Assembly (NCBI GenBank): GCA_000004985.1
Contig: GG738867.1
DNA from: Naegleria gruberi
Taxonomy: Eukaryota
Length of the DNA stretch: 64,000 nucleotides
Direction: 5' to 3' (one strand)
Made by a program: the position numbers and the translations under genes. Positions 3,763 to 60,503 of this stretch are shown here, piece by piece. Under the pieces are notes generated by a model. That model was not told where the DNA came from and did not search any database. It saw only the letters and a program-made list of their open reading frames with translations. Position 1 is the first letter of the stretch. Every line of letters begins with the position of its first letter.

Positions 3763-5057
3763 TTAAGCTATTTTATGAGAGAGTGAATGTCTTTTGCCTA
3801 TAACTTTGATTTCGTGAGATGAAATATCAAGTCCGAAAACTGAATCAAACGACTTGTCAATGGAGAGCTTGTCCAACAAAGATTTTCTGTCAATTCCTAC
3901 CTGTTGCAAAGTTGATTCAGAATTATCTTGAAATTGATTATTTTTGTAATCTGTGCAAATCCAAATATCTAAATTACAGTTAGATTTTTCGAATACATGC
4001 ATTGGAATCAACTCGGTAGTACCTTCCAACATGCTTTCATCCAAAGAGGGGAAGTATTGACAAAACTCAACTCCTGGCTTCATATCAATAATAACACCTT
4101 TGAGCTAATAATGATTTCAATGAATGTTAATTCTCAGCAAATTGTGCAGCTTACCTGTTTACAGAGGAGGAAATTGGAATCAAAAGATGGATGAGAGGTA
4201 TCACTAAAGAAAATATTCCACGTTGTGTTCGGCACTTTGTAACTCTTTACAAATCCAAGACAATCCACCAATTTGGTCTTATAACTTTCAATAATTTTGA
4301 AAGTATTCTCAGTAGAGGGTTCTCTCATTAACATGGGTCTCAATTCAGGGAACTCCTGAGCAATTTCATTCTTTGTGTAGAGTTCATCTCCCTTGATGAG
4401 AGCAAGAGTTTGACCCAATTGAAAGGCAAAACTCTTAATCATATCCTTATTATTGACAAGTTCATAAAAACTAGAATCTGAAATGTCAATTATATCCTTC
4501 AATGTTTTTATATAATGTCCAAAATCATTTGATCTCAAAGTTTCCTTAATTTGAGCTCTGTACTTTTTATATTTGGTGAAATAGGTGAGAATAGCTCTAC
4601 ATGCTCTAACAACTTTCAAAATGGTAACTCTTTCAACAGTGTTTTTGATTGGATGTTCAAATTCTTGCTTTGTTAAATGATTAGCATAGGTTTTCAACAA
4701 TCCATTATTGGCTTCATCTTCATTTCCTATTTTAATCAAATTCCAAAATAATTATCATCAAATAATTCATAATTTACCTTTGTAAATCTTTACAATTATT
4801 CCATCCTGTATCAGTGCAACATTTCTATTCTCCTCAATTTCCTTTCCATTTTCAATAATTTTCACACTCCGACAAAATACAGAACAATCCTGAAATGATG
4901 GAAATGGATTCGGATCCACAATGAAATAGAGAATATCCTTATCGGTTGAATTTTCTGAACCGTGAATAACATATCCATCACATTTAATTTTATGTGCCAC
5001 CATAGATTCAGTCCCCATGTGAGAGTCAGCAATTAGTTCTGGTTTATTGTCTTGCAT
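3763..5057 (-). CDS. Hypothetical protein, 3 exons (~397 aa), function not recognised
   Basis: Exons on the minus strand are 5057..4778, 4726..4155 and 4104..3763, with gtaaat/gtaagc donors and atag/ttag acceptors that keep the frame. The start codon (complement of 5055..5057) abuts the retroelement target-site duplication. Confidence 0.5.
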
Positions 5058-5071
5058 TTTTTTTTGATATT
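5056..5071. repeat. Target-site duplication, 5' copy (atttttttttgatatt)
   Basis: Exact 16-nt identity with 9386..9401. The two copies flank the region that contains the retroelement ORFs. Confidence 0.6.
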
Positions 5072-5086
5072 CGTCCTTCTAAAAAA

Positions 5087-5756
5087 ATGCCTCAACATGA
5101 CCACCCTCCGGATACGGAAGGGAGTACTCTGCTCGCTAACAGAATCTTTGTGTTAGAGAGAGCATTAGAAACCTCCCAAAAGGAAAACACATGTCTCCGG
5201 GAATCTATTCAAAATTTTGTAAATATTATAAGCGACCACATACTAAATAATAATAATAACGGTCCAATCACACTTGTAAATAATCTAATGGATGAGGCAA
5301 ATAAGTTTACATCTATTACACAAAAAAGTGGAAATCCATCAAATGATGGAAATCTATCAAATAATAGAAATCTATCAAATTGTGGAAAAACTACTGAATC
5401 GGAAATTATTCCAGATGACAGTGGTAAAACTAAAAATAGACCTGCTACATATTCAGAAATAACAAGGTCAACTCCTATTAAAAGTCAACCAAATATCAGA
5501 TGCAACTAATCACTCTGGTACTTCAAAATATAAATTAGTTAAATTATCACACACAGATAAGGATGAAATGGATGAATTCTGTAAGAAAAATATTTCTCTT
5601 ATTGATAAGCACAAAAACCATTTCAATTTCTATTTCAAACCTTCTATTGAGATTTTAGATCTTAAAATAGAACAGAAAAATAGATTATTTCCTTATTTAC
5701 CTACTATTAATTCTACTAATAATATTGCAACAACTAAATCAGTTGCTAAAACAACA

Positions 5757-5796
<40 letters not shown>

Positions 5797-6035
5797 TTAA
5801 TAATAATAATATTAATAATAATAATAATAATGAAAATAATCTGTTAATATTACTCACCAAAGCTTTTTCAAGCCTTGTTGTAGGATTGGCAAATAATAAT
5901 GTAATTCCATTAGATAATAACTTAATGGAAATTGTCAATATTACTAATAATATAAATAATGTAAATAATACTAACTCTGTAATGATAGATGATGATTTGA
6001 TTTCAACATCATCTAATGAATCTACTCAACCTTGA
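5087..6035 (+). CDS. Retroelement ORF1-like region (two frames, frameshifted; poly-Asn tract)
   Basis: ORFs 5087..5509 and 5568..6035 lie in different frames. An (AAT)n microsatellite at about 5758..5830 encodes poly-Asn. The second ORF overlaps the ORF2 start. Confidence 0.4.
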
Positions 6036-9000
6036 GTGGAACTACCACTAGTTTAAGACTTGCATGCTACAATGTTAACGGTCTATACAAGCATGCAGTC
6101 CATAAATCTGTAACTCAAGAATTGAAATCTATGTGTTTAACACATGGAGTTCATATGATGAGTATTACAGAAACACACGTTAACACTACTGAATTAGAAA
6201 TTAAAGTTAGAAATTCTGGTTCAGGTTATTTATTATTTAACTCCCTTATGGGTCGATCTAAAGGCTGTAAAGGAACAGCAGTTATGCACTTTTTAAATAA
6301 TCATAGAAAGCGTAACATTACCAATAATAATTTAGTACCTGGAATCTTACAATGGACAAGATTTGAAAGCAGGGGAATTCCAATTAATTTATTTACTATT
6401 TATTTAAGTGGCAGATCAGATGATTATGAAAATGATCAAGAAGCCATTAACAGTTTTATCAATGCTGTTTTAACATGTAAAGATGAACATATTATTTTAA
6501 GTGGGGATCTTAATATTGATACTCAAAACCCCACTACTACAAGAGAAAAGGATTGGATTTGGATTCTTGAAATGTTAAAATTGACAGAATTCAAAACACC
6601 AAATTATACATGGATTAGACGAAGTCAGGGAACTTTAATTAGATCTAGACCTGACCATATCTTTGTCTCAAAGAATATTAGAGTGGTAAAGGAAGTAATT
6701 ATGACACCTTTGACCACTAATGATCATGTCCCTTTTTATTTAGATTTAGAATTTAAATCTAATCTTACTTGGAGAACTTACTTTAGTAAGAATAAGAGGA
6801 AAAGAATGTACGAAGCAATTAATAAGTGTAAAATTGACAATTTTCAAGAGCTGAATCAAGCAATTGAGGCTCAAATAATTAAATATGGATCCAAAGTAGA
6901 TAGATTAGGAGTTGGAAGAATTTCTACAGCATTTAAAGAAGAAATTCAAGATTTAGAGGATGAAATATTATCTAAAATTAATAACCCTAATATTCCTCAA
7001 TCAGAAATACAAGAACTACAAACACTCCTAAAAGAAACACATATTAATAATGCAAAAGAGATTAAGGAAAAACTTATAGATGAATTTAATGATAACTCTT
7101 CATCTAGAATGTATCAATTTGATAAAATGATACACTCTAACCAAATTATGTGGAAAGACCTTAACTTTGAAGAAGAAGAAATAGTGGATTACTTTACAAA
7201 CAAATTTACCTCCACTAATCAACAACCAACATTCACACCAAGTAATTCAACTATCAAAGAAGGTCCAGATTGGAGCAATTCGATTCATATTAAAGAGCTA
7301 CAAGATGCTCTCAAACGAATGAAATCAAACACTTCTGGGCCTGATCTAATCTCACTTGATATAATTAAACATCTTACAGAAGCTAATCAAGGAATCCTCT
7401 TAGAAGAATATAATAGATGTTTAAGAGATGGTGATATTCCACAAAATTGGAAACAAGGATGGGTAAAACTCATTCCTAAAAGAGAAATTAATACCTTAAG
7501 TGATATTCGCCCAATTACTATTTTACCAATATTTTACAGAATATTATTTAATATTATAGCATTTAGATTGAGATCTTGGGCATCAACTCATATTAATGTT
7601 AGACAACAAGCATTTATTACAGACAGAAATACTTTGAATCATGGTGTATTACTCTCTGCCTTAGCAATGAAAACAAGGAAAAGGACTTTTATTTTAGTGA
7701 ATTTAGATATAGAAGGGGCGTATGATGCAGTCGAATTACCTGTCATCAAAATGGCCCTAGACCACTGCAAATACCCTTCAGAACTTACTCAATTCATTTT
7801 AAATGCTTATGCTAACCATGAACTTCAATTAGAAATTGATAATCATCTCTCTGATAAATTTAAGAAAACAAGAGGAATACCACAAGGCTGTCCACTGGCC
7901 CCTCTTATTTACGATTGTATTACCCAATTAATAATTGACAAAGCAATTGATAAGTGGAAGATACCAATCAAACCAGGCAAACTATGTGCAAATGATATTG
8001 CACTCTGCTGTTTTGCTGATGATATGAATGTTGTATGTGACAGATATGCCAAATATAATGAGAGACTAGACAATATTCATGATTGGTTACATCAATTATT
8101 ATTTAAATTGAATGCTAAGAAATCAGTAGCAACTCTATTACCTAAAAAGAGCACAGTCTCACCTAAAATCAAAGGTACTCCAGTACCTAAACAGAAAAAC
8201 CTTAGAGTACTTGGCCATTACCCTTGGGATGATACTTTGGTAACACAAGACATCCAATCCAAGATAGACAAATTCACAAAATCATTAAGATTTTTACCAT
8301 TATTCAAATTACAGCCAACAAACCTTAAAATAATTATGCATGCTAAAGCAATCAGCCTATTCACTCACCTCTCAAAAATCAATATAATCCCTTTAAAGAA
8401 AGCTCAGGAAATAGATCGTGCAATTAGAGGTGCAATCAGACGTAAATTATTAATGGACAGAGCAACTCCAACAAGTTTCTTTCACCTGCCATTAGAAGAA
8501 GGTGGATTAGGATTACCATCAATTGAGGAATTCTCTGAAAGAATGAATTTAAGAACTATGAATTTAATCGCCAATAATAAGAATAAGTTAATAAGAAAAG
8601 CTTTCAAACATGGTATCAAACATTGTGAGGAAACTAAAGATAATATGTATGCTAAATGGTTATCTGTACTTTAAGAATATAATCTCACATTTGTGCAGAA
8701 TGATACGAACTTTAGAATAGCCGGNNNNNNNNNNNNNNNNNNNNNNNNNNNNNNNNNNNNNNNNNNNNNNNNNNACTCAGAATCACACCTCCTTGTTAAG
8801 GATGGTGTTGTCATCTTCAATCATAAGAAGATGACCATAACAAGACATTTAAGTGTAAGACATAATAAGATGAATGAAAACCCTAACTTTATTCTAAACC
8901 AAAGTTGGGATTCTCTTAATGTGCAATACCTTAAAACTCGTCTTACTCCTAAAACTAAATACTTTATATGGAGAAATTCCATCAATGCCCATATCAATTT

Positions 9001-9334
9001 TGGTAAGGGTAAAAGTTTCTGTTACGATTGTGGTACAGAATCTGATTTATTCCATTACATTCATGAGTGCCCTGGCTTGGATAGTGCCAGGTATTTTTGT
9101 CAGTCAAAGATATCTGATATTCTTGAAGGGAGAGAGTGCTTACTTTCTCATTTTCAATTCAAACCAGAAAAGCATCACCATGCATTACATTTCCATCATA
9201 ACGGAATCACCTCTTTCGAAGATGGATACATGCAATTCCATAAAGACATCGCTAAGAAGTGGCCAGAGATCCAAGGTGCCATTTCTAACTTTGTCGGCCG
9301 TTCCTATTCTAACTATTATATTGACTCCAAATAA
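6032..9334 (+). CDS. Retroelement ORF2: apurinic-endonuclease-like + reverse transcriptase + CCHC zinc knuckle (interrupted)
   Basis: APE motifs: LRLACYNVNGL, ILSGDLNID, RPDHIFVS. RT motifs: ILVNLDIEGAYD, PQGCPLAP, CCFADDMNVV. CCHC: CYDCGTESDLFHYIHEC at 8775..9334. An in-frame TAA at 8672..8674 and the N gap at 8725..8774 interrupt the ORF. The frame across the gap is not interpretable. Confidence 0.75.
8725..8774. other. Assembly gap (50 N) inside retroelement
   Basis: A run of exactly 50 N characters. Confidence 0.99.
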
Positions 9335-9385
9335 TTTATATAACCTATGAGAATCTGAATAGATTCGTTATTGTCGTAATAAAAG

Positions 9386-9401
9386 ATTTTTTTTTGATAT
9401 T
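9386..9401. repeat. Target-site duplication, 3' copy (atttttttttgatatt)
   Basis: Identical to 5056..5071. Confidence 0.6.
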
Positions 9402-9537
9402 GTAAAGTGCAATTTCGTTTTGGAACTTTCTAAGCAAGGAATTTATGCAATTAGCTCTATGCAAAGAGTTGGATTTAACAACTTGGGAACTCGAGCTGCA
9501 TAATTATTTAACTCACAAATTAGTCAACTAGAGATAT

Positions 9538-10887
9538 TTAACAACAACAAAGGAATGAACTTCCAGAAGAGAATTCAATGTCCAATCCAATTAATTCGGC
9601 CAACTCCTTAACAAATAGAATGTCATCTCCACATAGACTGAGAGCACCACTTTGTTTCTCAGTGACAATCATCTTCTTATTGATTGAATCATTCATAGCA
9701 AGGAATAAAATTGTTTGATTATTGATAAAGGCAAAGTATTTTCTGAATAGATATTCCTGTTCTGTGCGTGACATGTGTTGAATTCTTGAAAGCAGATCGT
9801 CTAACATTTTAGTTTTTTCCACATCACTTGATGATTTCTTGAGAATTTTTGCCAATTCCTTATCATGAATAATAATTTCCTTCTCCTTGATCAAGATATC
9901 AAAGCATTCCTTCTTGGTTTCCAGAATTTCATCGCATGTACAGGCCAAATAGTGATCCTGTTTGGCAATTTGTTGATAATCATTGAGGGAGACATAGTAT
10001 CCAAACACAATATCATTTCCAAAATGTTTTTCAATATATTGCATATTCTGTTGAGGAGCAAAATAAGTAAGAAAGTGAATGGCATGGACTTTTGAACAGC
10101 CATTCAAACCGATTGGTACGTTGGTAGAGATGAGTACTCTCTTCTTCAATAAGAGTGCCTTCCACAATGTGAAAATATTCTCCCTATAAGAATAGAATAG
10201 AGAAACCAACGATCCAAAATGAAGATGGTTATCAATCTCTATTTTGGTAATTTCCGATAATCTGACCTTCTTAGAGCCATTGAAAGAATCATTTGCTGTA
10301 AAGTAATTGTTCAATTTTTGAATGCAATCAGAGAGGGTTTTCTTTCCCTCTAGACTTTCGTCACATCTATTCAACTTGGCCAATAACTTTTTCAAGAAGG
10401 AGGCATGAGCCATCATTCCTCTATATTCATTACAAATAACTCCCATAGCTCGTATTCTAGAACCACGATCCAACTCCTCCGATCTGAAAATATCTACACA
10501 AGCCATTCCAAAGAATTCTTGTGTATTATGCACGTGTCTAAACATGACAATATCTGTATCAAGTTTATGTGTTCCACTTGGTAAACATTTAAATTCAATA
10601 CCTCCCAAATCGATCGGATATGATTCATTTTGAAATTGATATTCAATTCTATATCCAATCTTTAAATCAAATTTAACAACGAACAAACAAACAATATTCG
10701 TTTCAATCATTGGGTTTACAATTGATACTTGATTAATTTTCTCCACCATTTCCGAATCATTCTTTTTCATTTCAAATTTCCCAGAATCATGTCGTTGTGC
10801 AGCTAACCTCTGACTCTTCAGCAATGAGACAGTTTCATCAACTTCATCTTCAGAATTCGGAGAGGGAGCAACTCTATTTTGTGGCAT
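9538..10887 (-). CDS. DENN/AVL9-like domain protein (tentative)
   Basis: Single 449-aa ORF. The N-terminal uDENN-like longin region and central DENN-like segment are recognised only by overall pattern, with no sharp motif. Confidence 0.45.
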   Translation of the reverse strand: MPQNRVAPSPNSEDEVDETVSLLKSQRLAAQRHDSGKFEMKKNDSEMVEKINQVSIVNPMIETNIVCLFVVKFDLKIGYRIEYQFQNESYPIDLGGIEFKCLPSGTHKLDTDIVMFRHVHNTQEFFGMACVDIFRSEELDRGSRIRAMGVICNEYRGMMAHASFLKKLLAKLNRCDESLEGKKTLSDCIQKLNNYFTANDSFNGSKKVRLSEITKIEIDNHLHFGSLVSLFYSYRENIFTLWKALLLKKRVLISTNVPIGLNGCSKVHAIHFLTYFAPQQNMQYIEKHFGNDIVFGYYVSLNDYQQIAKQDHYLACTCDEILETKKECFDILIKEKEIIIHDKELAKILKKSSSDVEKTKMLDDLLSRIQHMSRTEQEYLFRKYFAFINNQTILFLAMNDSINKKMIVTEKQSGALSLCGDDILFVKELAELIGLDIEFSSGSSFLCCC

Positions 10888-11336
10888 TTTTTTTTGAATT
10901 AGATTTTTCCCATATAATAATCAACATCAATTATTTTACCATCATCACAAATATTTTCATAAATCTCTAATTTATTATTATTAATATTATTCTCTAATAA
11001 GATAGATAAGGGAACTGCTTATTAAATCTCTTTTGAATTTTTTTAAAATTGTGATGATGAAAATTCTTGATGATGAAATTTTGTGTTATTTTTCATATCG
11101 GAACAACAAAAATTGATTCCAAACGAATGAAGTGTTGCAAGTATGCTGTAAAAGAACCTTCTGCCAAAAAAAACTCTTCCCTTGTGTTGTTCAAGATTCA
11201 TTATGAAATAGCTTGATGTGGTGCGTGGTCCAATACGAATGAGCGGTTGACGAGCCGTTGTAAATTCTGACGCGTGGTTGTACAAAGACTTGCGTTGGAA
11301 AAACTCGTTTCAAAAAAATACCTCAATAATAACAAC

Positions 11337-11909
11337 ATGTCTGACGAAGATACTACATTCGAACAAGCTGGTTCTGGTGCTTCCCACACTTTCCCAATGC
11401 AAGCGTATGTATTCTAATATTATGATCATGAGAAAAATAACAATATTCAAATATAATATTATATTCACAATATAAATCATTTTAACATGTAAAATCACAG
11501 TGGTAACTTGAAGAAGGGCGGTCACGTCGTCATCAAGGAAAGACCTTGCAAGATTACTGAAGTCACCACCTCAAAGACTGGTAAGCACGGTCACGCTAAG
11601 GCCAATATTACTGGTATTGATATTTTCACTGGTAGAAAGTATGAAGATGTCTGTCCAACTTCCCACAACATGCCAGTTCCAAACGTCGCAAGAAACGAAT
11701 ATCAAGTCCTCGCTATTGATGGTGATTTCATCCATCTTATGCTTGAAGATGGTTCTTCTCGTGAAGACATTAAGTTGCCAACTGAAACTGATGAAGATAA
11801 GCTTTTGACTGAAAAGATTAGAGCTGCTTATGACAATGGTGATGAATTCAACGTCATCCTCGTTGCTGCTATGGGCATTGAAAAGGTCATGGAAATCAAG
11901 ATGCAATAA
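11337..11909 (+). CDS. eif5a: Translation initiation factor eIF5A, 2 exons
   Basis: Exon 1 is 11337..11404, with a gtatgt donor and a 96-nt intron. Exon 2 is 11501..11909. The hypusination loop is STSKTGKHGHAK, and codon usage is strongly biased, as expected for a highly expressed gene. Confidence 0.9.
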
Positions 11910-12056
11910 ATTTTCTCCCAATTTCTTTCTTATTCCGTTAATGTCATTACTTATCAATGATTTACTCTTTTCACATTATTACTTCTTTGTGGATGGATAA
12001 GATTAACAATTAGTCCATTCTAAATTGTTCCAATACAAATCAATTTAAATAAAAAA

Positions 12057-13453
12057 ATGAAATTCGTAATTGACAAGAGTGCACTTACCCATAATGCCTC
12101 GATACCTCTTGTTGGAGGATTGTTAACATTGAATGTACAACATAGCAATCCACAGGCAGGATCATCTTCACCATTATCCATTTCTGAAGATAATAGTAGT
12201 AATACATCATCATCAGTTAATAATAACACTCCGATCAATGTTGCCAATAATAACAATCAAAATTGTAGTCATGGTTGCCAGCATCATGATCATCACCATC
12301 AACATCAACATCGCCATCACAACAAGGACACTCAACCTCTCCTTCACAATCATCCTCACCTCGAGGAAGATAATTCAAAGAGAAGAAAAAAGGATGATTG
12401 TTGTTCATCATTTGTCAAATGTTGTCAATCTTCTCTGTTACCTGGAGTTGTTGCATCACTCTCTGTTGGTGCCTATCTTGTTGGTGCTTTTGTCATTGTT
12501 CCATTCGCCTTTCCTCTCTTCAATCCTGTAAAATCAACCAACATTATGATAATTGTTCATATTTTGAATCAAATCTTTGGATTGTTTGAATTGAGTATGC
12601 TGTTACTCAGTTATTTCAGATGTATGAAAACAAATCCCGGAATAGTTTCAAATAATTGGCAAGAAACATTCTCTGATGAAGAATTAAAAGTTCTTCTCAG
12701 TTTGGAACCACAAAAGAATGGAGAACCAAGATATTGTTCAAAAACTGGAATGATAATACCTCCTAGAGCTCACTTTTCATCAGTTCAAAAGAAGGTTGTT
12801 TTGAGAATGGATCACTATTGTGTTTGGGTTAATAATTGTGTTGGATTGTACAACCACAAATATTTCTATTTATTTTTAACTTATTTAGGTAAGGAGTTTG
12901 ATGAAAGTTATATTAATTGTTTCAAGTTATTGCAATTACTCACTTTTTTGGAATTACAATTTTTGTTGTCATTGAGTTTATTAAGGATTCACAAAATATT
13001 GATGTTGCAGTTTTTCTATTAACACTTGTATTTAACGTCTTTTTGGTACCAATGTCATGCATGATTTATTTATTCTGGGGCTGGAATACTTATTTAATCT
13101 TGTTGAATCAAACATCTATTGAGAATTATCAATTATCTGAAAAGAGAAATAGAGCTCGTATGAAGAAACTCAACACTGAACATTTGAAATATCTCAATTT
13201 TTACAATATTTCATTCATGGAAAATGCCAAACAGGTGATGGGAAGAACAGTTTGGAAATGGCCTTTCCCAATACCTGACAATCTTGGAACTGATGGTTTC
13301 AGATATCCAACAGTATTACCATACGATACTATTATTGAAATGCAAAAGGAAACATTCACTCACGTACTCCCAGACCAATCTCACAGACCACCAAATGATA
13401 GACGAAGAAGTTATGACAGTGACTATAGTGACAGTGATGATGAAATGGTATAA
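12057..13453 (+). CDS. DHHC-type palmitoyltransferase, 2 exons
   Basis: Exon 1 is 12057..12888 (gtaagg donor) and exon 2 is 12927..13453. The catalytic motif is CSKTG...DHYCVWVNNCVG. A downstream TTxE-like motif (TSIENY) and four TM helices are present. The N-terminus carries a His-rich tract (HHDHHHQHQHRHH). Confidence 0.85.
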
Positions 13454-14280: not shown

Positions 14281-15519
14281 ATGAATTTTCAAAGTGTTGC
14301 TTTTCCTGATGATATTTGTTTTGAAGTGTTCAAGTATTCAGAGCAGAAACACATGCTTGCCAACTTTCTTGTTTGCCAGCAATGGTTTCGTATTGGAATG
14401 ACAAGATATTCGTTTTCTATTAAACTAAATCAAACATCACAGCAATTAAACAAGTGGTGGAAGAGATTAGTTTCGGATAAAATTGATCACAAGTGGGGTT
14501 TTACAGGATCATCAATTAAAAAATTAAAATTCTCACATTTGACAATCAAATCAACAGATTTTATGAAAATTTATTCGAATATGAAAAATTTAAAATCACT
14601 TTCCATGAAAAAGTGCAGAATTGAAAAGAAAGATTTTGTTTATTTAATGAAAATTAAACAATTGGAAAGTTTGAATATTATCCCACATTTCTCAAATATC
14701 ACAAATGAAGAGATTTGCAAAATTTGTACGAATTTAACAAATTTGAAAGATTTTGGAATTAGTGGAATGTCATTACAATATAAAACTCTTCAATATATTA
14801 CAAATATGAAAAGTTTAACATCATTGGATATTTCAAATACTGAATTATATGAAGAATATTTGCAAGAAATTGGTAAAATGACTCATTTGACCTCTCTTAA
14901 TATTGGAGATAATGGGACGATTCCACTACAATATATTAAATCATTAGCAGGATTGAAATCATTAAATATTAACGGAAGATTTATCAATAATGGATTTTAT
15001 GAGCTGAGAGAATTGAAGGATTTACACTCATTGACAGAGTTGAGTGTTTCACACAATACAATTAAAACGAAAGGACTAAAGTACTTGATTGACACATTTC
15101 CAGATTTGACAAGTCTTGATATTTCTTACAATGGATTGGGAAGTATCAAGAAAATTAGAAAATTGAAACATCTTACAAAACTGGACATTTCTAATAATTC
15201 TATTAGCGATCAAGATCTCATATATATAACTTGTCTTCCTCAACTGACAAAACTCAACATTTCAAGTAATCAGATTACAGATAATGGAGCACTACTATTT
15301 GCTTCCATGGAAAGTTTGAGAAATATTGATGTCCGTTTCAATGACATCACAAATGACAAGGTATTTCAAGGAATGATAAATTTGGAAAAGCTAAAATTCA
15401 AATCATTCTCTCTTGAACCTTCTTCAAGAAAAAACAAGGATGGTCAAGCATGTTTATCAATTCTATTTACTCTGTTCATTTCCTTAATTACAATGTATTT
15501 CATGTATTTTAAAAGGTAA
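14281..15519 (+). CDS. Leucine-rich repeat protein with F-box-like N-terminus and C-terminal hydrophobic segment
   Basis: 412-aa ORF with about 12 LRRs (LxxLxLxxN). The N-terminal segment DDICFEVFKY is F-box-like. Confidence 0.65.
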   Translation: MNFQSVAFPDDICFEVFKYSEQKHMLANFLVCQQWFRIGMTRYSFSIKLNQTSQQLNKWWKRLVSDKIDHKWGFTGSSIKKLKFSHLTIKSTDFMKIYSNMKNLKSLSMKKCRIEKKDFVYLMKIKQLESLNIIPHFSNITNEEICKICTNLTNLKDFGISGMSLQYKTLQYITNMKSLTSLDISNTELYEEYLQEIGKMTHLTSLNIGDNGTIPLQYIKSLAGLKSLNINGRFINNGFYELRELKDLHSLTELSVSHNTIKTKGLKYLIDTFPDLTSLDISYNGLGSIKKIRKLKHLTKLDISNNSISDQDLIYITCLPQLTKLNISSNQITDNGALLFASMESLRNIDVRFNDITNDKVFQGMINLEKLKFKSFSLEPSSRKNKDGQACLSILFTLFISLITMYFMYFKR

Positions 15520-16574: not shown

Positions 16575-16693
16575 GGCTACGGCCATATCACGATGAATGC
16601 ACCTCATCCCGTCCGATTTGAGAAGTTAAGCATCGTCGAGCCACATCAGTACTGAGGTTGGAGACAACTTGGGAACCTGTGGTGCTGTAGTCT
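16575..16693 (+). rRNA. 5S ribosomal RNA
   Basis: The 119-nt sequence GGCTACGGCCATATCACGATGAATGCACCTCATCCCGTCCGATTTGAGAAGTTAAGCATCGTCGAGCCACATCAGTACTGAGGTTGGAGACAACTTGGGAACCTGTGGTGCTGTAGTCT aligns to the eukaryotic 5S consensus along its whole length, including the box C region. The 5' and 3' ends pair to form helix I. Confidence 0.9.
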
Positions 16694-18949: not shown

Positions 18950-20398
18950 TTCGTTTTATGTATTCAAAGAGTTTCTTCAAATTTCAAATGTTTTTCATGA
19001 TTATTATGATGTTACATGTAAGGGTAAGTCCAAAGTAAATGGTGGTCAATGGGTATGTTGGAGGTTTCGGCTGAGTTTGGATCTGCCAACATCAGATGAT
19101 TCCTTCAGCAACCAAAGGGAATTCAGTACAATCAATGGCTGAGCGGGCCACCAATGGTTGGGCGGGCCACCAACAACATTTCGCCGCACCAACAACATTT
19201 GACCGCCTCAACTGCTACAGGCGCAAAGGTAGCAGGAGGCCTCTACCGGTCAACATTAAAAACATGGAAGACTGATTTTGTCATCATTCAATATGGAGTC
19301 TGTATTCAGCTTGATACAGTGCGAATTGTTTCTTCATTGATTTGGGATGGAATTTCAGACAGAAATTGAGTTGTTGCTCTCCGTTATTGTTCACTTAATC
19401 AAAGTCCCAAGCCTACGAAAACTAATCGAATGCACTTCATCCACACTCTCATCCTCCAACTCATCATTGGTTCATCAACACTCTCCTAGACCAAATCTCA
19501 ACCAAAGAAGCCGAACATTGTTGTATCTGTTGGAAGAGAACTTCTTAAAGAATTTCAAACCACTCTTCATCGTTTCTTAATGTCAAAGTTGATCAATTAC
19601 TGGCAAACATGTTGTCCTCACCTATTATCAGAAATGTAACATCATGATAAGGATTTTGTTTGCAACTAAAATCATCAATAATGGTCAAGATGACAGAAGA
19701 AGAATTAGAAGAAGAACTTGAGCGTACTTTTACCCTTTCAGATTTGCAATAATTAAAGCCAGCCAAGATATTATACTGCCCAAACCAAAATCAAATCCTC
19801 AATCAATATCAGAACTTCCGCTGAGATCAGCCAAGACCTAAAACGGAAACTCCACCAACAAGAAGAAAAGTCATAGAACCCAACAACATACCACATACCA
19901 CCAAGCACAGAAGAAGATATTACTCATTTAATGATGCAGATGTGGTGTATAAGGTAACAAGAGAAGTAGAAATGCTACTAAGCATATTGGCATGACTAGC
20001 ATTAGCTTTGTTTTGTTGGAGCGGCCAATTAATGTTGGCCCGGGCAAATAGGTTTTGGCGTGGCGGGAAACCATTGGCGTGGCTGGCTTTTATTTACTCC
20101 CCCAGCAACAATTGGCTACCTCAACAACCAAAAAAAGTACCAGAAATCATCTACCGCCACCAGTACACACGATTTTGGAGTTACCCTCTTTGGAAAGGAT
20201 GGAGTGTCAAGTAACGAAGGCGCTTCAATTCAATCAACTAACCAATCAATATCTGAAAATGGCTAAAGAGTCGCAGATTTTTTGATTGACCAGGAGAATC
20301 CTTTGCTAGGTCAAAAATATATGAAATTCAAAAAAAGTCTTATTAACATCTTCTAAAAAAAAAAGAATAATCACCTTAATTTGGCAATAATTGGTAAA

Positions 20399-20487
20399 AG
20401 GCGACTGAGGGAATTGAACCCTCGACCCTCAGTTATCTCGACATTTCTGCCTACAAGACTGATGCACTGCCACTGTGCTAAGCCGCC
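20399..20487 (-). tRNA. tRNA-Thr(UGU) with a 17-nt intron (tentative isotype)
   Basis: On the minus strand the 7-bp acceptor stem is GGCGGCT/AGTCGCC with one G-U pair. The D arm is GCAC-AGTGGCA-GTGC and the T arm is GAGGG-TTCAATT-CCCTC. The anticodon stem TCAGT/ACTGA is formed only if 17 nt (GGCAGAAATGTCGAGAT) are removed 3' of position 37. The loop is C-T-TGT-A, giving anticodon UGU. TTTT follows the 3' end. Confidence 0.7.
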
Positions 20488-20707
20488 TTACAATCGATGA
20501 ATTCACTCAAAAATAAATGCAAAACAATTGCTAAAATAAAAGTGTTTATCTTAAATTCCTCATTCTAACTCTCTATTCCAATCTTTACTCATTCACATAT
20601 TCACAAACACAAATCAAAAGAACTTTAATTGCCAATTATCTAAGTTTGTGAGCTCATGTCATTCGTGCCAACACTAAATTATATATCAAACTTGAATTGT
20701 CATCAGA

Positions 20708-26773: not shown

Positions 26774-28500
26774 CTACTTTGAAGTAGCACTGCTCTGACT
26801 GGTATAGTAGGTAATAGAATCCTTATTTGCAGTTTCCATTGATTCATCCTTCATTGATGAATATCCAGCGTTTTGATTAGTTAAAGATTCTGAAAGAGAG
26901 ACATCGAACTCCAAATCAGTGCTACCTCTTTTACAATAATAGAATGATCTAAATTCGTCGTTATTATATTCTGAATAAAACAATGCAATAGCAATTGAAA
27001 ACTCAAACACAACAAGCATGGTTCCAAAAAAAAGATACCAAACACCAATTACGTTTTCTAATGCTACAATTGAAATGAAAAATGATGCCATCAGTAACAG
27101 TAAAACTGAGACAAACACTACAAATTTGGAGTACTAATTCAAATTAAGTTAATGTTACAAATATCACTACTTACAAAAGTGTTATGTGTAATTTCAACAT
27201 CAGTCAATTTTTTCAAACTAATATTTGCCCAAATTGATGAAATAATAAATGCTAAATGATATTAATAATGAAAATTCTCAAAGCACTTACCAAGTGTTGA
27301 TAATAAAGACAGCACTGCCATAATAATATTATAAGCATTTCTAAAAATATTAACTACAGTGAAGAAAAATACAATTGGAATGACAAATCCAAAACCAATA
27401 GCAATTAAGAATAACACAGAGTGCACAATAATTGACTTAATGAGAATGCCTCTTATTTTTTGTATAGTCCACACTATTCTTATCCAGTAATGAACCCATG
27501 AAAATAATGCCATAATCAAAAAGCTTGGACTTGCTGTATTCAGAGTTCCAAATAGTCCTCTGGCTATTGCATAGTCAGATGGTAAAAAGGAAGCGACCCA
27601 AAAGCTAATATTAAATACGAGTAAATAAAATAGGCAATATAAACTAGTAGAAATAGGAAGGTACCTCTTGGTCTTGAAGCACTGTTTCATCTTTGGTAAG
27701 AAGACGAAAAATACAAAGCAAACCATTAAAATTGTCTCAAAAATAATGATAGCAAAATTAATTAAAGTCAAAAATTGATTCAATGCTAATTCTGTATCAC
27801 AATTGAATGCAAAAAATAAAAGTTCTGGGCATGTACAATAGTATGAGAAAGTTTCTGAACTGGAATATCCAGACAACACACTATTATTGATTACTAATGG
27901 AAACCCAAAATTATTTCTTCCACAATAAGTAATTGTTGAAGGAAATTGATTAATCATTAGATTAGCAACTGAATCTCTTGGATTACATTGTTGTAATAAG
28001 GTCCTTGTCTTAAATTCCTTTGCATGCTTACAGTATTGACACGAATTAATCCAATCATGTAATTGCAATCCTCCGTAAGAGGTTACTAAGCTCAAATCCT
28101 CCAAACCACTATCACACAATAAATCCACACATGTAATATTCAATATATTTTCCATATATTCCACTACCTGGCATGTGTCATACATTGGTGAAGACTGAAT
28201 CAACAGACGATTCCACATCGAATATGAAAACGGTGATGAAGCATCATACGTCTGTGCAACATAGGTAGAATTACAATAAAAATCAAGTGGAAATCGTTCA
28301 TTAGTTATCATGTTAGTATGATTAAAATATATCATTTCAATAGATGGATTCCTACAATTCTGAAAATATGCATATTGATATATTCCCGGAGCAGTAATTG
28401 TCGTCATATTGGATGCCGCCTCCACTTGTAAATTCATCATCATCATTAAAAGTAGTAAAATTGTGGAGGAGAAAATATGTTGTAGATAATTATCTTGCAT
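26774..28500 (-). CDS. Paralogue C of the Cys-rich-ectodomain multi-pass receptor-like family, 2 exons (~517 aa)
   Basis: Exon 1 is 28500..27291, with a phase-1 gtaagt donor, and exon 2 is 27117..26774, after a ttgtag acceptor. The signal peptide is MQDNYLQHIFSSTILLLLMMMMNLQVEA. The 12-Cys ectodomain carries ITCVDLLCD, HDWINSCQYC, CNPRD, FPSTITYCG, FGFPLVI and YCTC, followed by the TM bundle and an acidic tail. Confidence 0.7.
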
Positions 28501-28603
28501 TTTTTTTTAAATATTTTTAAAGAGGAGAGCGCAAACGTGTGATTTGAAAGATCTTTTGTAATTTTTAAATATTGTTATTCATATTAAGAATCAAATGATT
28601 ACA

Positions 28604-35346: not shown

Positions 35347-38037
35347 TTGTTTGGACAACTGTTGATAATTAAAAAATCTGATACCAGTCAGTTTACAATG
35401 AGTCTGTCCTCTGGTAAGGTGTGCAATGCTGTCACAAGAAAAAAAATGCTTTCCCAAGATGATGAAAAAAGTTACCGAAATTGTCAAGAATTAGTTAAAT
35501 GGTTGGAGGAACAGAGGTGTCCACCCACGATTAGAAAAGGTAGGCTGCTCTAAGTGATTTATTAATTATTAATACTTTGGGTAAATCAGCATTACAAGAT
35601 AACGCTTGTGATGAGTGGATTTTGTGTAACAGTGATGAAGAAACTCTGTTGCAAGAATTAAATCTAACCAAATTACAATTACGCGCGTTGATGAGATTCA
35701 TCACTAACTCCTCCTCATCGTCAAGCAATAGCAGCAGCTCATCATCAAACTCTACCAAGAAAGATACACCACAAATTACTTCGAATGAATTTGACAACAA
35801 GTATAACAACATTGGTTTACTGGGAAGTGGAGGTTACGGAAAAGTGTATAAAGTGACGCTCAAGCATAAACCAAGTATTATGCGAGCTGTCAAGGTAATT
35901 GAAGATCGATACGATTTTACTGTTAACGAAGCATTGAAAGAAGTAATGCAAACAATGAAAGTTGCACACAAACATGTTGTGCAAATATATGATGTTACTA
36001 TTACTAATAATCGTTCACTGATGATTGAGATGGAATGTTTGGAATGTGGAAGTTTATACGACCATTTCATTAGGAAACGAGTTAAGCCTTCTGAAAGGAT
36101 AGCCATTTCAATCATTCAGCAGATATTAAGCGCACTTCAATTTATGCAAAAAAGTTTTAAAATGGTTCACAGAGATGTCAAACCAGCAAACATTTTGATT
36201 AGATCTATCGATTTAGACAAGGGTGAAATTGATGTTTGTTTGGCAGATTTTGGATTTGCAAGATCATTTGAACCTTCATCTCAAATATCTAACATTTACG
36301 GTACATTTTCTTATTTAGCTCCTGAAGTTAAATTAGTTTTGGACAATGATGAAATGAGATCAAAACAACCCTACTCAGTAGCTTCTGATATTTATGCATT
36401 AGGTGCAACAATGTTTTATCTAATGACGTTTAATCAAGCCAACCAAGCCAATCATCAATTATTGAATTCGCTAAACCATTACTCATCGAAACTGGTTGCA
36501 ATTATTTTGAAAATGTTAAGTGAAGATCCAATAGATAGACATTTAGAAATTACTACAATCAATATGTCACAAATTTCTACTTTTGGACATGATAACCAAG
36601 TCAAGGAATTAAAGAATCAAGTGACCGAAACAACCTTAGAATCTACAATTATTCAACATACTGCAAATCAAGAAAATATAGTTACTCAATATAATTTAGG
36701 TATGAAGTATATAAAAGGAGAAGGATGTGAAAAATCATTTGAAAAAGCATTTGAATGGTTTGAAAAATCTGCAAATCAAGGATATAATGAAGCCCAATAT
36801 AGGTTAGGTTTGATGTATTGCTTTGGACAAGGATGTAACGAATCATTTGAAAAAGCATTTGAATGGTATGAAAAATCTGCAAATCAAGGACATAATGAGG
36901 CGCAATTTAGGTTAGGTTTGATGTATTATCTTGGAAATGGATGTAAACAATCATTTGAAAAAGCATTTGAATGGTATGAAAAATCTGCAAATCAAGGAAT
37001 TGCTATTGCTCAACATATGTTTGGTGAGATGTATTTACAAGGAGAAGGATGCAAACAATTATTTGAAAAAGCATTTGAATGGTTTGAAAAATCTGCAAAT
37101 CAAGGATATAATGAAGCGCAATTTAATTTAGGTTCGATGTATTTAATTGGAGAAGGATGTGACAAATCATTTGAAAAAGCATTTGAATGGTTTGAAAAAT
37201 CTGCAAATCAAGGACACAAAATGCACAATTTTATTTAGGTTTGATGTATTATAATGGACAAGGATGTCAACAATCATTTGAAAAAGCTCTTAAATGGTAT
37301 GAAAAATCTGCAAATCAAGGACATAATGAGGCGCAATTTAGGTTAGGTTTGATGTATTATCTTGGAAAAAGATGTAGACAATCATTTGAAAAAGCATTTG
37401 AATGGGTTGAAAAATCTGCAAATCAAGGATATGATGAAGCACAATTTAAGTTAGCCTGGATGTATTTTAATGGAGAAGGATGTGAAAAATCATGTGAAAA
37501 AGCATTTGAATGGTATGAAAAATCTGCAAATCAAGGTCATACAAAAGCTCCATATAGGTTAGGTTTGATGTATTATCTTGGAAAAGGATGTAAACAATCA
37601 TTTGAAAAAGCATTTGAATGGTATGAAAAATCTGCTAATCAAGAAAATGCAGTTGCTAAATTTAATTTAGGTTTGATGTATTATAATGGAGAAGGATGTC
37701 AACAATCATTTGAAAAAGCACTTAAATGGTATAAAAAAGCTGCTAATCAAGAACATGCTAATGCTCAATTTAATTTAGGTTTGATGTATTATAATGGAAA
37801 AGGATGTGAAAAATCATTTGAAAAAGCATTTGAATGGTATGAAAAAGCTGCTAATCAAGAACATGTAAATGCTCAACATGTATTTAGGTTAGATGTATTT
37901 TAATGGAGAAGGATGTAAACAATCATTTGAAAAAGCATTTGAATGGTATGAAAAATCTGCAAATCAAGGACATAATGGTGCGCAATTTAGGTTAGGTTTG
38001 ATGTATTATCTTGGAAAAGGATGTAGACAATCATTTG
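35347..38037 (+). CDS. Ser/Thr protein kinase fused to a long Sel1-like (SLR) repeat array; 3' end lost in assembly gap
   Basis: Exon 1 is 35347..35539 (phase-1 gtaggc donor, 50-nt intron) and exon 2 starts at 35590. Kinase motifs are GSGGYGKVYKV, HRDVKPANILI, DFGFAR and YLAPE. From about 36690 there are at least 12 near-identical 36-aa repeats (GEGCEKSFEKAFEWYEKSANQGHNEAQFRLGLMYY). Frame breaks occur at about 37225 and about 37890 inside the array. Confidence 0.7.
36690..38037 (+). repeat. Tandem array of ~108-bp near-identical units (Sel1 repeat coding), truncated by gap
   Basis: The period is 108 bp with more than 90 percent identity between units. The units can be read by eye in the sequence (tcatttgaaaaagcatttgaatggtatgaaaaatctgcaaatcaagg...). 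Confidence 0.85.
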
Positions 38038-38087
38038 NNNNNNNNNNNNNNNNNNNNNNNNNNNNNNNNNNNNNNNNNNNNNNNNNN
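38038..38087. other. Assembly gap (50 N) between Sel1 array and convergent gene
   Basis: A run of exactly 50 N characters. Confidence 0.99.
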
Positions 38088-60430: not shown

Positions 60431-60503
60431 GCCCGTCCAGCTCAGTCGGTAGAGCGCAAGGCTCTTAACCTTGTGGTCGTGGGTTCGACCCCCACGGTGG
60501 GCG
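60431..60503 (+). tRNA. tRNA-Lys(CUU)
   Basis: GCCCGTCCAGCTCAGTCGGTAGAGCGCAAGGCTCTTAACCTTGTGGTCGTGGGTTCGACCCCCACGGTGGGCG folds as a canonical cloverleaf. The anticodon loop is CT-CTT-AA, the T loop is TTCGACC, and the discriminator is G. TTTT lies 6 nt downstream. Confidence 0.9.

Follow-up and report, generated by a model that had tools for sequence, protein, structure and literature searches.

Naegleria genomes have been described as gene-dense and nearly free of transposable elements (TEs), with a TE content of 0.28% in Naegleria gruberi (bioRxiv 10.64898/2026.06.24.734286), which makes the persistence of a long interspersed nuclear element (LINE) there a question of interest. The question is raised by a 64,000-nucleotide stretch of N. 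gruberi contig GG738867.1 (assembly GCA_000004985.1; hereinafter, the window), in which a LINE is inserted at the start codon of a protein-coding gene, here denoted gene A. The comparisons described below suggest that LINEs of this family probably home to gene starts rather than land there by chance. The features involved are the following (window coordinates; TSD, target-site duplication; ORF, open reading frame).

3763-5057, minus strand: host gene A, 397 aa, with exons 5057-4778, 4726-4155 and 4104-3763; its ATG is the insertion point.
5056-5071, plus strand: 5' copy of the TSD, ATTTTTTTTTGATATT; read on the minus strand, AATATCAAAAAAAAAT, it comprises a 14-nt leader and the A and T of the gene A ATG.
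5072-9385, plus strand: the non-long terminal repeat (LINE) retrotransposon, bounded by the TSD and the empty site; 4314 bp as assembled, about 4.7 kb in reality.
9386-9401, plus strand: 3' copy of the TSD, an exact repeat of the 5' copy.
9402-9537, minus strand: 136 of the 150 nt of the former spacer, with the 3' region of the DENN gene and the presumed gene A promoter; now at the 3' end of the element.
9538-10887, minus strand: DENND11-like gene, 449 aa, a single ORF (Pfam DENND11, E-value 8.7e-42); upstream tandem neighbor of gene A.

The initial annotation of the window had described a LINE-like retrotransposon with a 16-bp TSD, and both parts of this description stand. The element is flanked by the TSD, lacks long terminal repeats (LTRs) and terminal inverted repeats, and its ORF2 carries an apurinic/apyrimidinic (APE)-type endonuclease N-terminal to a reverse transcriptase (RT), the arrangement expected of a LINE. 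A search of the entire window confirmed that ATTTTTTTTTGATATT is present in exactly two copies, at 5056-5071 and 9386-9401, bracketing ORF1 and ORF2. The repeat cannot be extended, the neighboring base being C versus G on the left and C versus G on the right, so that the TSD is exactly 16 bp long. It is not a motif expected to recur by chance, with no occurrences in 100 dinucleotide-preserving shuffles of the window. Besides ATTTTTTTTTGATATT, the only exact 16-mer pairs spaced 1-10 kb apart in the window belong to an (AAT)n microsatellite and to a repeat block at 36.7-38 kb. Inspection of the flanks of both 16-mer copies showed that no second, outer TSD exists around the element.

That the 16-bp repeat arose by target-site duplication is shown by a strain of about 99% identity, in which the uninterrupted site has a single copy of the 16-mer. 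The empty site comes from a 1623-bp metagenome contig (L003) of this sister strain, which encodes a near-identical DENND11-like protein. Positions 1-1588 of the contig align to window positions 10973 to 9386 at 99% identity, and positions 1573-1622 align to window positions 5071 to 5022; the overlap between the two alignments is exactly the 16-mer, which is present once in the contig, with one mismatch located in the hexamer that precedes the A-run of AATATCAAAAAAAAAT. The reconstructed pre-insertion sequence is colinear with L003, with 5 differences in the spacer, and the distance from the DENN stop codon to the gene A ATG is exactly 150 nt in both, in line with the approximately 150 bp estimated previously. 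The 3' copy of the TSD lies 136 nt from that stop codon (9538-9540), close to the earlier figure of about 140 bp. The sister-strain contig that carries gene A (L002) ends 50 bp before the junction.

The element contains an assembly gap of 50 N, which the initial annotation missed, and the family is multicopy, with copies about 99% identical, so that one could imagine a scaffold that joins two copies of the element across the gap where no insertion actually occurred. This explanation is scarcely credible: in L003, the two flanks form one continuous sequence with the junction exactly at the 16-mer, which would be unexpected for unrelated loci, and therefore the scaffold join across the gap is correct.

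As proposed previously, the 5' copy of the TSD is located at the start of gene A, where it covers two bases, the A and the T, of the minus-strand start codon (5057-5055). Gene A consists of three exons and has orthologs in N. lovaniensis (52% identity), Willaertia magna and several environmental heteroloboseans, the N-termini of which start within a few residues of the window ATG. No Pfam domain was found in the 397-aa product, which on these comparisons is a conserved heterolobosean protein. The DENN gene had been considered convergent with its neighbor; in fact, both flanking genes are on the minus strand, in tandem, with the DENN gene upstream.

Is the position at the start codon a coincidence, as the initial annotation had assumed in treating the insertion as a chance placement? 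A second insertion, in a 23-kb locus of N. fowleri (L006), bears directly on this question, in that it shares with the first the 16-mer, the overlap with the ATG and the orientation. The N. fowleri element, a relative of the window element (P0005; 48% identity in ORF2), occupies positions 7387-12979 of the locus, with the ORF1 ATG at 7401 and the ORF2 stop codon at 12975, and is flanked by exact copies of ATTTTTTTTTGATATT at 7371-7386 and 12980-12995. The left 16-mer overlaps, by the same two bases, the annotated ATG (7372, minus strand) of a divergent TELO2-like gene. The flanks of the two insertions are unrelated apart from the 16-mer and the C of CAT. In both cases, the host ATG and the ORF1 ATG are 28-29 nt apart, and the element and the host gene are divergent. 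Thus, both elements are in the fixed, head-to-head orientation with respect to the host gene that is expected of sequence-specific LINEs, and the target 16-mer and the cut position, AT^G, are identical in the two complete cases. A third, partial case is a 5279-bp Logan contig (L001) with a related element (57% identity in ORF2), the residual flanks of which (ATTT and T8) are similar to the 16-mer ends.

Because two elements with only 48% identity, in two species and next to unrelated genes, share all 16 TSD bases, the cut and the orientation, site-specific integration appears to be the natural explanation. The alternative is that an ordinary, untargeted LINE landed at a start codon and that the 16-mer in N. 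fowleri is coincidental. Many LINEs insert into AT-rich DNA, A-runs in front of ATG codons are common in the window, and there are only two complete cases; however, a coincidence would have to encompass 16 of 16 TSD bases, the nick between T and G and the orientation, and the hexamers that precede the other A-run starts in the window are diverse. We consider this explanation very unlikely. It could also be argued that the 16-mer, being present at both ends of the element in two species, belongs to the element itself, as terminal direct repeats or transduced flanks, and that L003 represents a recombination scar left after the loss of the element. In that case, however, the element would have to supply the ATG of the host gene; the variant 16-mer of L003 sits colinearly in a spacer that differs at 5 of 150 nt, which is what native sequence would look like; the L001 contig ends without a full 16-mer; and an outer TSD is lacking. 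Taken together, these observations make such a scenario extremely unlikely.

How could an element with a fixed target repeatedly encounter start codons? The answer suggested by the window is that Naegleria gene starts are characteristically marked by an A-run directly in front of the ATG. Among the A(>=7)TG sites on both strands of the window, 16 of 17 open ORFs of 96 to 695 codons; in the N. lovaniensis locus, three of four such sites are annotated gene starts, and the 23-kb N. fowleri locus contains just two A7TG sites, one at the start of the hit gene and the other at that of ORF1 of the element. A/T runs of at least 8 nt number just 21 in the 64-kb window. Runs of A7 to A9 abutting an ATG are found, for example, at 2425, 10887, 28500, 48919 and 55583 on the minus strand and at 14281 on the plus strand, which suggests that very short A-rich leaders are general in Naegleria. 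Because A-runs mark gene starts, cutting at A9T^G would be enough to direct an endonuclease to start codons, with no cue other than the sequence. The hexamer upstream of the A-run seems to matter for the choice of target as well because it is AATATC at both occupied sites and varies at the other starts in the window.

A near-target site that is unoccupied lies at 28489-28515 (minus strand), where a 412-codon membrane-protein ORF starts with AAATATTTAAAAAAAAATGCAAGATAAT. The leader and the first four codons (MQDN) at 28500 are nearly the same as those of gene A; the possibility that this ORF is a gene A paralog that inherited the leader was considered and rejected given that it encodes an unrelated membrane protein.

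The importance of A-runs invites a more modest explanation, namely, that the endonuclease simply prefers long A/T tracts, comparable to the TTTT/AA preference of L1, such tracts lying almost exclusively at gene starts in Naegleria, without recognition of GATATT or of 16-17 nt in total. Tracts of 8 nt or more are indeed rare and concentrated at start codons, and the L001 flanks include a T-run, with ATTT rather than TATT as the other flank. What speaks against this explanation is that the window and N. fowleri insertions have the same hexamer and that four other A9TG starts with different hexamers are unoccupied; on balance, we regard it as unlikely.

We consider it likely, from sequence comparison, that the window element is a very young, 5'-complete LINE that is site-specific for AATATCAAAAAAAAAT^G, that is, for the leader and start codon of genes. 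A broader proposal, which we advance tentatively and to which we give slightly less than even chances, is that a lineage of LINEs in Naegleria targets the A-rich leader and ATG of protein-coding genes to the exact nucleotide, that the hit genes may stay expressed, and that the specificity could be inherited through transcriptional read-through. The comparison covers two complete insertions and one partial insertion (L001).

Several observations weigh against site specificity. Just two complete insertions and one contig with residual flanks underlie it, and the empty-site comparison covers the window insertion. The sister-strain site is one base off in the hexamer, and no element is inserted at four further A9-ATG starts in the window, which have different hexamers. 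The positions of the nicks, RNA read-through and promoter activity are all inferred, and the folding energies of the 3' hairpins described below are not significant by themselves (z = -1 to -2). Finally, two degraded copies from an environmental heterolobosean (L005 and L008) have no recognizable TSD or target. Should the specificity fail, what is left is a well-documented recent insertion polymorphism beside a gene start.

The termini of the element can be delineated by comparison with its relatives. At the 5' end, L001 begins with ATTT followed by CGTCTTCAAAAAAAATG, compared to gatatt followed by CGTCCTTCTAAAAAAATG in the window, and the N. fowleri element begins with ATGACGCAAAAAAAATG. At the 3' end, GAGAATCTGAATAGATTCGTGAATTGTGATTAATAAA is followed by TTTTTTTT in L001, compared to GAGAATCTGAATAGATTCGTTATTGTCGTAATAAAAG followed by ATTTTTTTTT in the window. 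Thus, L001 stops within 4 nt (5') and within 8 nt (3') of the homologous termini of the element; such ends are what a collapsed multicopy repeat would give. The match between the termini indicates that the window copy is 5'-complete, with a predicted 5' untranslated region (UTR) of 15 nt. A poly(A) or simple-repeat tail is lacking: the window element ends with GTAATAAAAG directly before the TSD, and the N. fowleri element ends with TAATTAG. LINEs without tails are known, so that the missing tail does not exclude LINE membership. Among the related elements, the conserved termini can be summarized as CGTC..TTC.A7ATG at the 5' end and as the hairpin followed by TAATWA..AG at the 3' end. An AATAAA signal is located 4-9 nt before the end of the element. 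A 6-bp hairpin can form in each of the four related 3' UTRs, with different stem sequences. The features of the untranslated regions are as follows.

5072-5086, plus strand: 5' UTR, 15 nt, CGTCCTTCTAAAAAA; an A7 run abuts the ORF1 ATG, mimicking the host start context.
9335-9385, plus strand: 3' UTR, 51 nt, ending with TAATAAAAG, without a poly(A) tail.
9349-9368, plus strand: conserved 20-mer GAGAATCTGAATAGATTCGT in the 3' UTR, with the 6-bp hairpin at 9351-9366.

The 20-mer GAGAATCTGAATAGATTCGT is identical in the window (9349-9368) and in L001 (5235-5254), although the ORF2 DNA of the two elements is 66% identical, and it is probably a cis element recognized by the RT.

These data are compatible with the following scenario of integration. 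Through target-primed reverse transcription, the element would become inserted in a protein-coding gene, within its short A-rich leader. The first nick would be made in the sense strand of the gene, between the T and the G of the ATG, 5'-AATATCAAAAAAAAAT^G: an element in plus orientation has to be primed from a nick in the minus strand, at the left border of the TSD. The second nick would be made 16 nt away in the plus strand, GATATT^G. The hairpin of the 3' UTR, together with the terminal TAATAAAAG, could be the part of the RNA that is recognized by the RT. More speculatively, transcripts of the element probably run into the downstream 16-mer because the AATAAA signal is so close to the end of the element; pairing of the read-through tail with 16 nt of the nicked target would then be possible and would make the specificity heritable. 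Such heritable pairing would explain the presence of the same 16-mer in two species. Given a 5' UTR of 15 nt, the promoter would have to be either internal or shared with the initiation region of the host gene.

What does the insertion entail for the host gene? The gene A ORF is intact, and the TSD leaves it with the native 14-nt leader and ATG. Upstream of this leader is now the antisense 5' end of the element, and the old 136-nt region, with the presumed promoter, abuts the 3' end of the element and points into it. Gene A may be silenced or driven from the 5' end of the element, as the initial annotation had proposed. Young TEs in N. gruberi have been reported to be methylated and heterochromatic (PMC12344493), which would favor silencing of gene A. 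The insertion is too young for decay of gene A to be informative on this point. The TELO2-like gene hit in N. fowleri is annotated as intact (965 aa, with TELO2 domains), which hints that such insertions can be tolerated, and the hit genes, including the TELO2-like gene, may stay expressed from a shared divergent initiation region.

How does this behavior compare with that of known target-specific elements? Target-specific APE-type LINEs include R1, TRAS1 and SART1 of Bombyx, the Tx1 group (Keno, Mutsu), Dong and Waldo. The Naegleria family resembles these in the combination of APE and RT, a single defined target, one orientation, precise junctions and no need for poly(A). In target-specific LINEs, a structure in the 3' UTR is recognized by the RT, and in R1, SART and TRAS, the read-through 3' tail pairs with the target. 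The known target-specific LINEs hit multicopy RNA genes, telomeric repeats or microsatellites, whereas the target of the Naegleria family would be the leader and ATG of single-copy genes, with a 16-bp TSD. We know of no site-specific APE-type LINE with targets other than repeated RNA genes, telomeres or microsatellites and, to our knowledge, no retrotransposon has the leader and start codon of protein-coding genes as its target class. In the literature available for searching, there was no account of Naegleria LINE families or their targets, nor of a retrotransposon with such a target class.

The initial annotation had framed the element in terms of the dictyostelid TREs, a framing that does not fit a N. 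gruberi element without tRNA association. TRE5 and TRE3 of Dictyostelium are likewise LINEs with ORF1 and ORF2 (APE, RT) that occupy positional safe havens in the compact, gene-dense genome of a protist. The integration sites of TREs lie at set distances from tRNA genes and are chosen through RNA polymerase III factors. By contrast, the Naegleria element, in a heterolobosean host, has no tRNA or 5S gene within 7 kb, and its family carries an RNase H domain; that the element does not adjoin a tRNA gene had been correctly stated in the initial annotation. Membership in the TRE group, the insertions of which are close to a tRNA gene (about 50 bp upstream or about 100 bp downstream), was rejected, the nearest genes of the polymerase III class being those for 5S rRNA at 16575 and tRNA-Thr at 20398.

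By domain order, the family can be likened to trypanosomatid ingi and L1Tc and to the I group (I, Tad1, LOA, R1), with which it shares the succession of APE, RT and RNase H and a C-terminal Cys/His motif. Ingi and L1Tc, the hosts of which belong to Discoba like Naegleria, have a weak insertion-site consensus, a TSD of about 12 bp and an internal promoter at the extreme 5' end. The Naegleria target differs in being far more specific and located at start codons, and the Naegleria element has no poly(A) tail. Integration at the 5' ends of genes is also known for Tf1 of Schizosaccharomyces pombe, murine leukemia virus, Ty1 and Ty3; these, however, are LTR elements or retroviruses with an integrase, and their targeting is regional, through chromatin or tethering, rather than nucleotide-precise at the ATG.

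The known safe havens include tRNA genes in Dictyostelium and ribosomal DNA or telomeres in insects. If the specificity proposed here is correct, homing between the promoter and the ATG would be a new safe haven solution, and the host-like A7-ATG leader of the element's own ORF1 would be explained. Furthermore, each such insertion would be a natural experiment on the minimal upstream sequence of a Naegleria gene, and the element would provide an APE endonuclease and RT system specific for 16-17 nt.

The coding part of the element comprises the following features.

5087-5509, plus strand: ORF1a, 140 aa, with an N-terminus and an xSYxEI motif like those of ORF1 of L001 and of the N. fowleri element.
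5568-6035, plus strand: ORF1b, 155 aa, Asn-rich, in a different frame from ORF1a.
6032-8674, plus strand: N-terminal part of ORF2, 880 codons, without an initial ATG, overlapping the ORF1b stop codon.
about 6068-6736, plus strand: APE-type endonuclease (Exo_endo_phos_2).
about 7472-8218, plus strand: reverse transcriptase (RVT_1).
8672-8674, plus strand: in-frame TAA; Lys in the intact copies P0004 and P0042; 50 nt before the gap.
8725-8774: assembly gap, 50 N, replacing about 146 codons including the RNase H domain.
8777-9334, plus strand: C-terminal part of ORF2, 185 codons, in the same frame as 6032-8674; stop codon at 9332-9334.
9020-9070, plus strand: CX2C...HX4C motif in the C-terminal part of ORF2.

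No Pfam domain was found in ORF1a. In the window, ORF1 is split into two frames (5509-5568) and falls short of ORF1 of L001 and of the N. fowleri element by about 200 codons; ORF1b is either the frameshifted continuation of ORF1 or a native second ORF. ORF2 overlaps the ORF1b stop codon at 6032-6035 (CCTTGAGTG) and has no ATG, which suggests reinitiation or frameshifting.

The RT of the window ORF2 is recognized above the Pfam cut-off (RVT_1, E-value 3.4e-28), and the closest solved RTs are those of R2 and human L1 ORF2p. The endonuclease scores under the curated cut-off in the window copy (Exo_endo_phos_2, E-value 5.4e-05, 23.5 bits against 27.4) and above it in the related ORF2 P0001 (31.3 bits). 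RNase_H was detected in P0001 (Pfam, E-value 2.1e-13) and in P0042, an intact copy of the window family. Accordingly, the family has the RNase H domain downstream of the RT, as in I-group and ingi-like elements, by way of P0001 and P0042, and in the window the respective position falls into the N gap. Specifically, residues of about 898-1043 of P0042 are lacking in the window copy; because about 146 residues are hidden by the gap, the true length of the element is about 4.7 kb. The in-frame TAA is either a nonsense mutation or a read-end error. Together with three other residue differences from the intact copies, it falls within about 50 codons before the gap, and the clustered differences may reflect low-quality read ends rather than mutations.

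The window copy corresponds to NAEGRDRAFT_67419/67420 on a 424-kb scaffold, and its ORF2 is 100% identical to two predicted proteins of N. gruberi over the aligned 45% of the query. The intact ORF2 of P0042, from an ENA metagenome, consists of 1228 residues, of which the window copy matches 878 of 880 before the gap and 181 of 182 after it. By cluster membership, the window family is present at at least 4 loci in N. gruberi, a second N. gruberi family (58% identity) at two loci, and a related family at at least 12 loci in N. fowleri. Besides the window copy, the loci of the window family include NAEGRDRAFT_61754/61755, 46411 and 71761; those of the second family are 54134 and 54470. The N. fowleri loci include FDP41_012763, 004143, 004155, 011787, 001244/5, 009107/8, 000613/4, 001781/2, 000850, 013316 and 007335. 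With few loci and near-identity to P0042, the window family is apparently low-copy and very young. In the environmental heterolobosean, L005 (ERZ27315067, k141_1928542) is a related LINE that is 5'-truncated and degraded, without a TSD of at least 8 bp, and L008 (k141_250299) is a related copy with a degraded 3' part. A scan of JGI metagenomes with the ORF2 alignment yielded one distant LINE, L007, with 24% identity, and the corresponding scans of viral contigs and GTDB genomes found no relatives.

Among the annotated N. gruberi proteins, the searches recovered neither gene A nor its DENND11-like neighbor, for which metagenome ORFs and proteins of other Naegleria species were the best matches; both genes may be missing from the N. 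gruberi gene set. In N. lovaniensis, an additional gene on the opposite strand is located between the DENND11 and gene A orthologs (L004, PYSW02000003.1, 8395-9891). It encodes a Cys-rich membrane protein of 393 aa and has no counterpart in the 150-nt spacer of N. gruberi and the sister strain; the possibility that this gene is a relic of a LINE was rejected, the protein being unrelated to RTs.

Elsewhere in the window, we identified a dispersed 5S rRNA gene (16575-16693), a tRNA-Thr(TGT) gene (20398-20488) with a length of 91 nt that suggests an intron, and a tRNA-Lys(CTT) gene (60431-60503). Direct repeats longer than 16 bp (36721-36830 versus 37800-37991), about 1.1-1.2 kb apart, adjoin a second 50-N gap at 38038-38087 and probably represent a repetitive coding region or a collapsed repeat.

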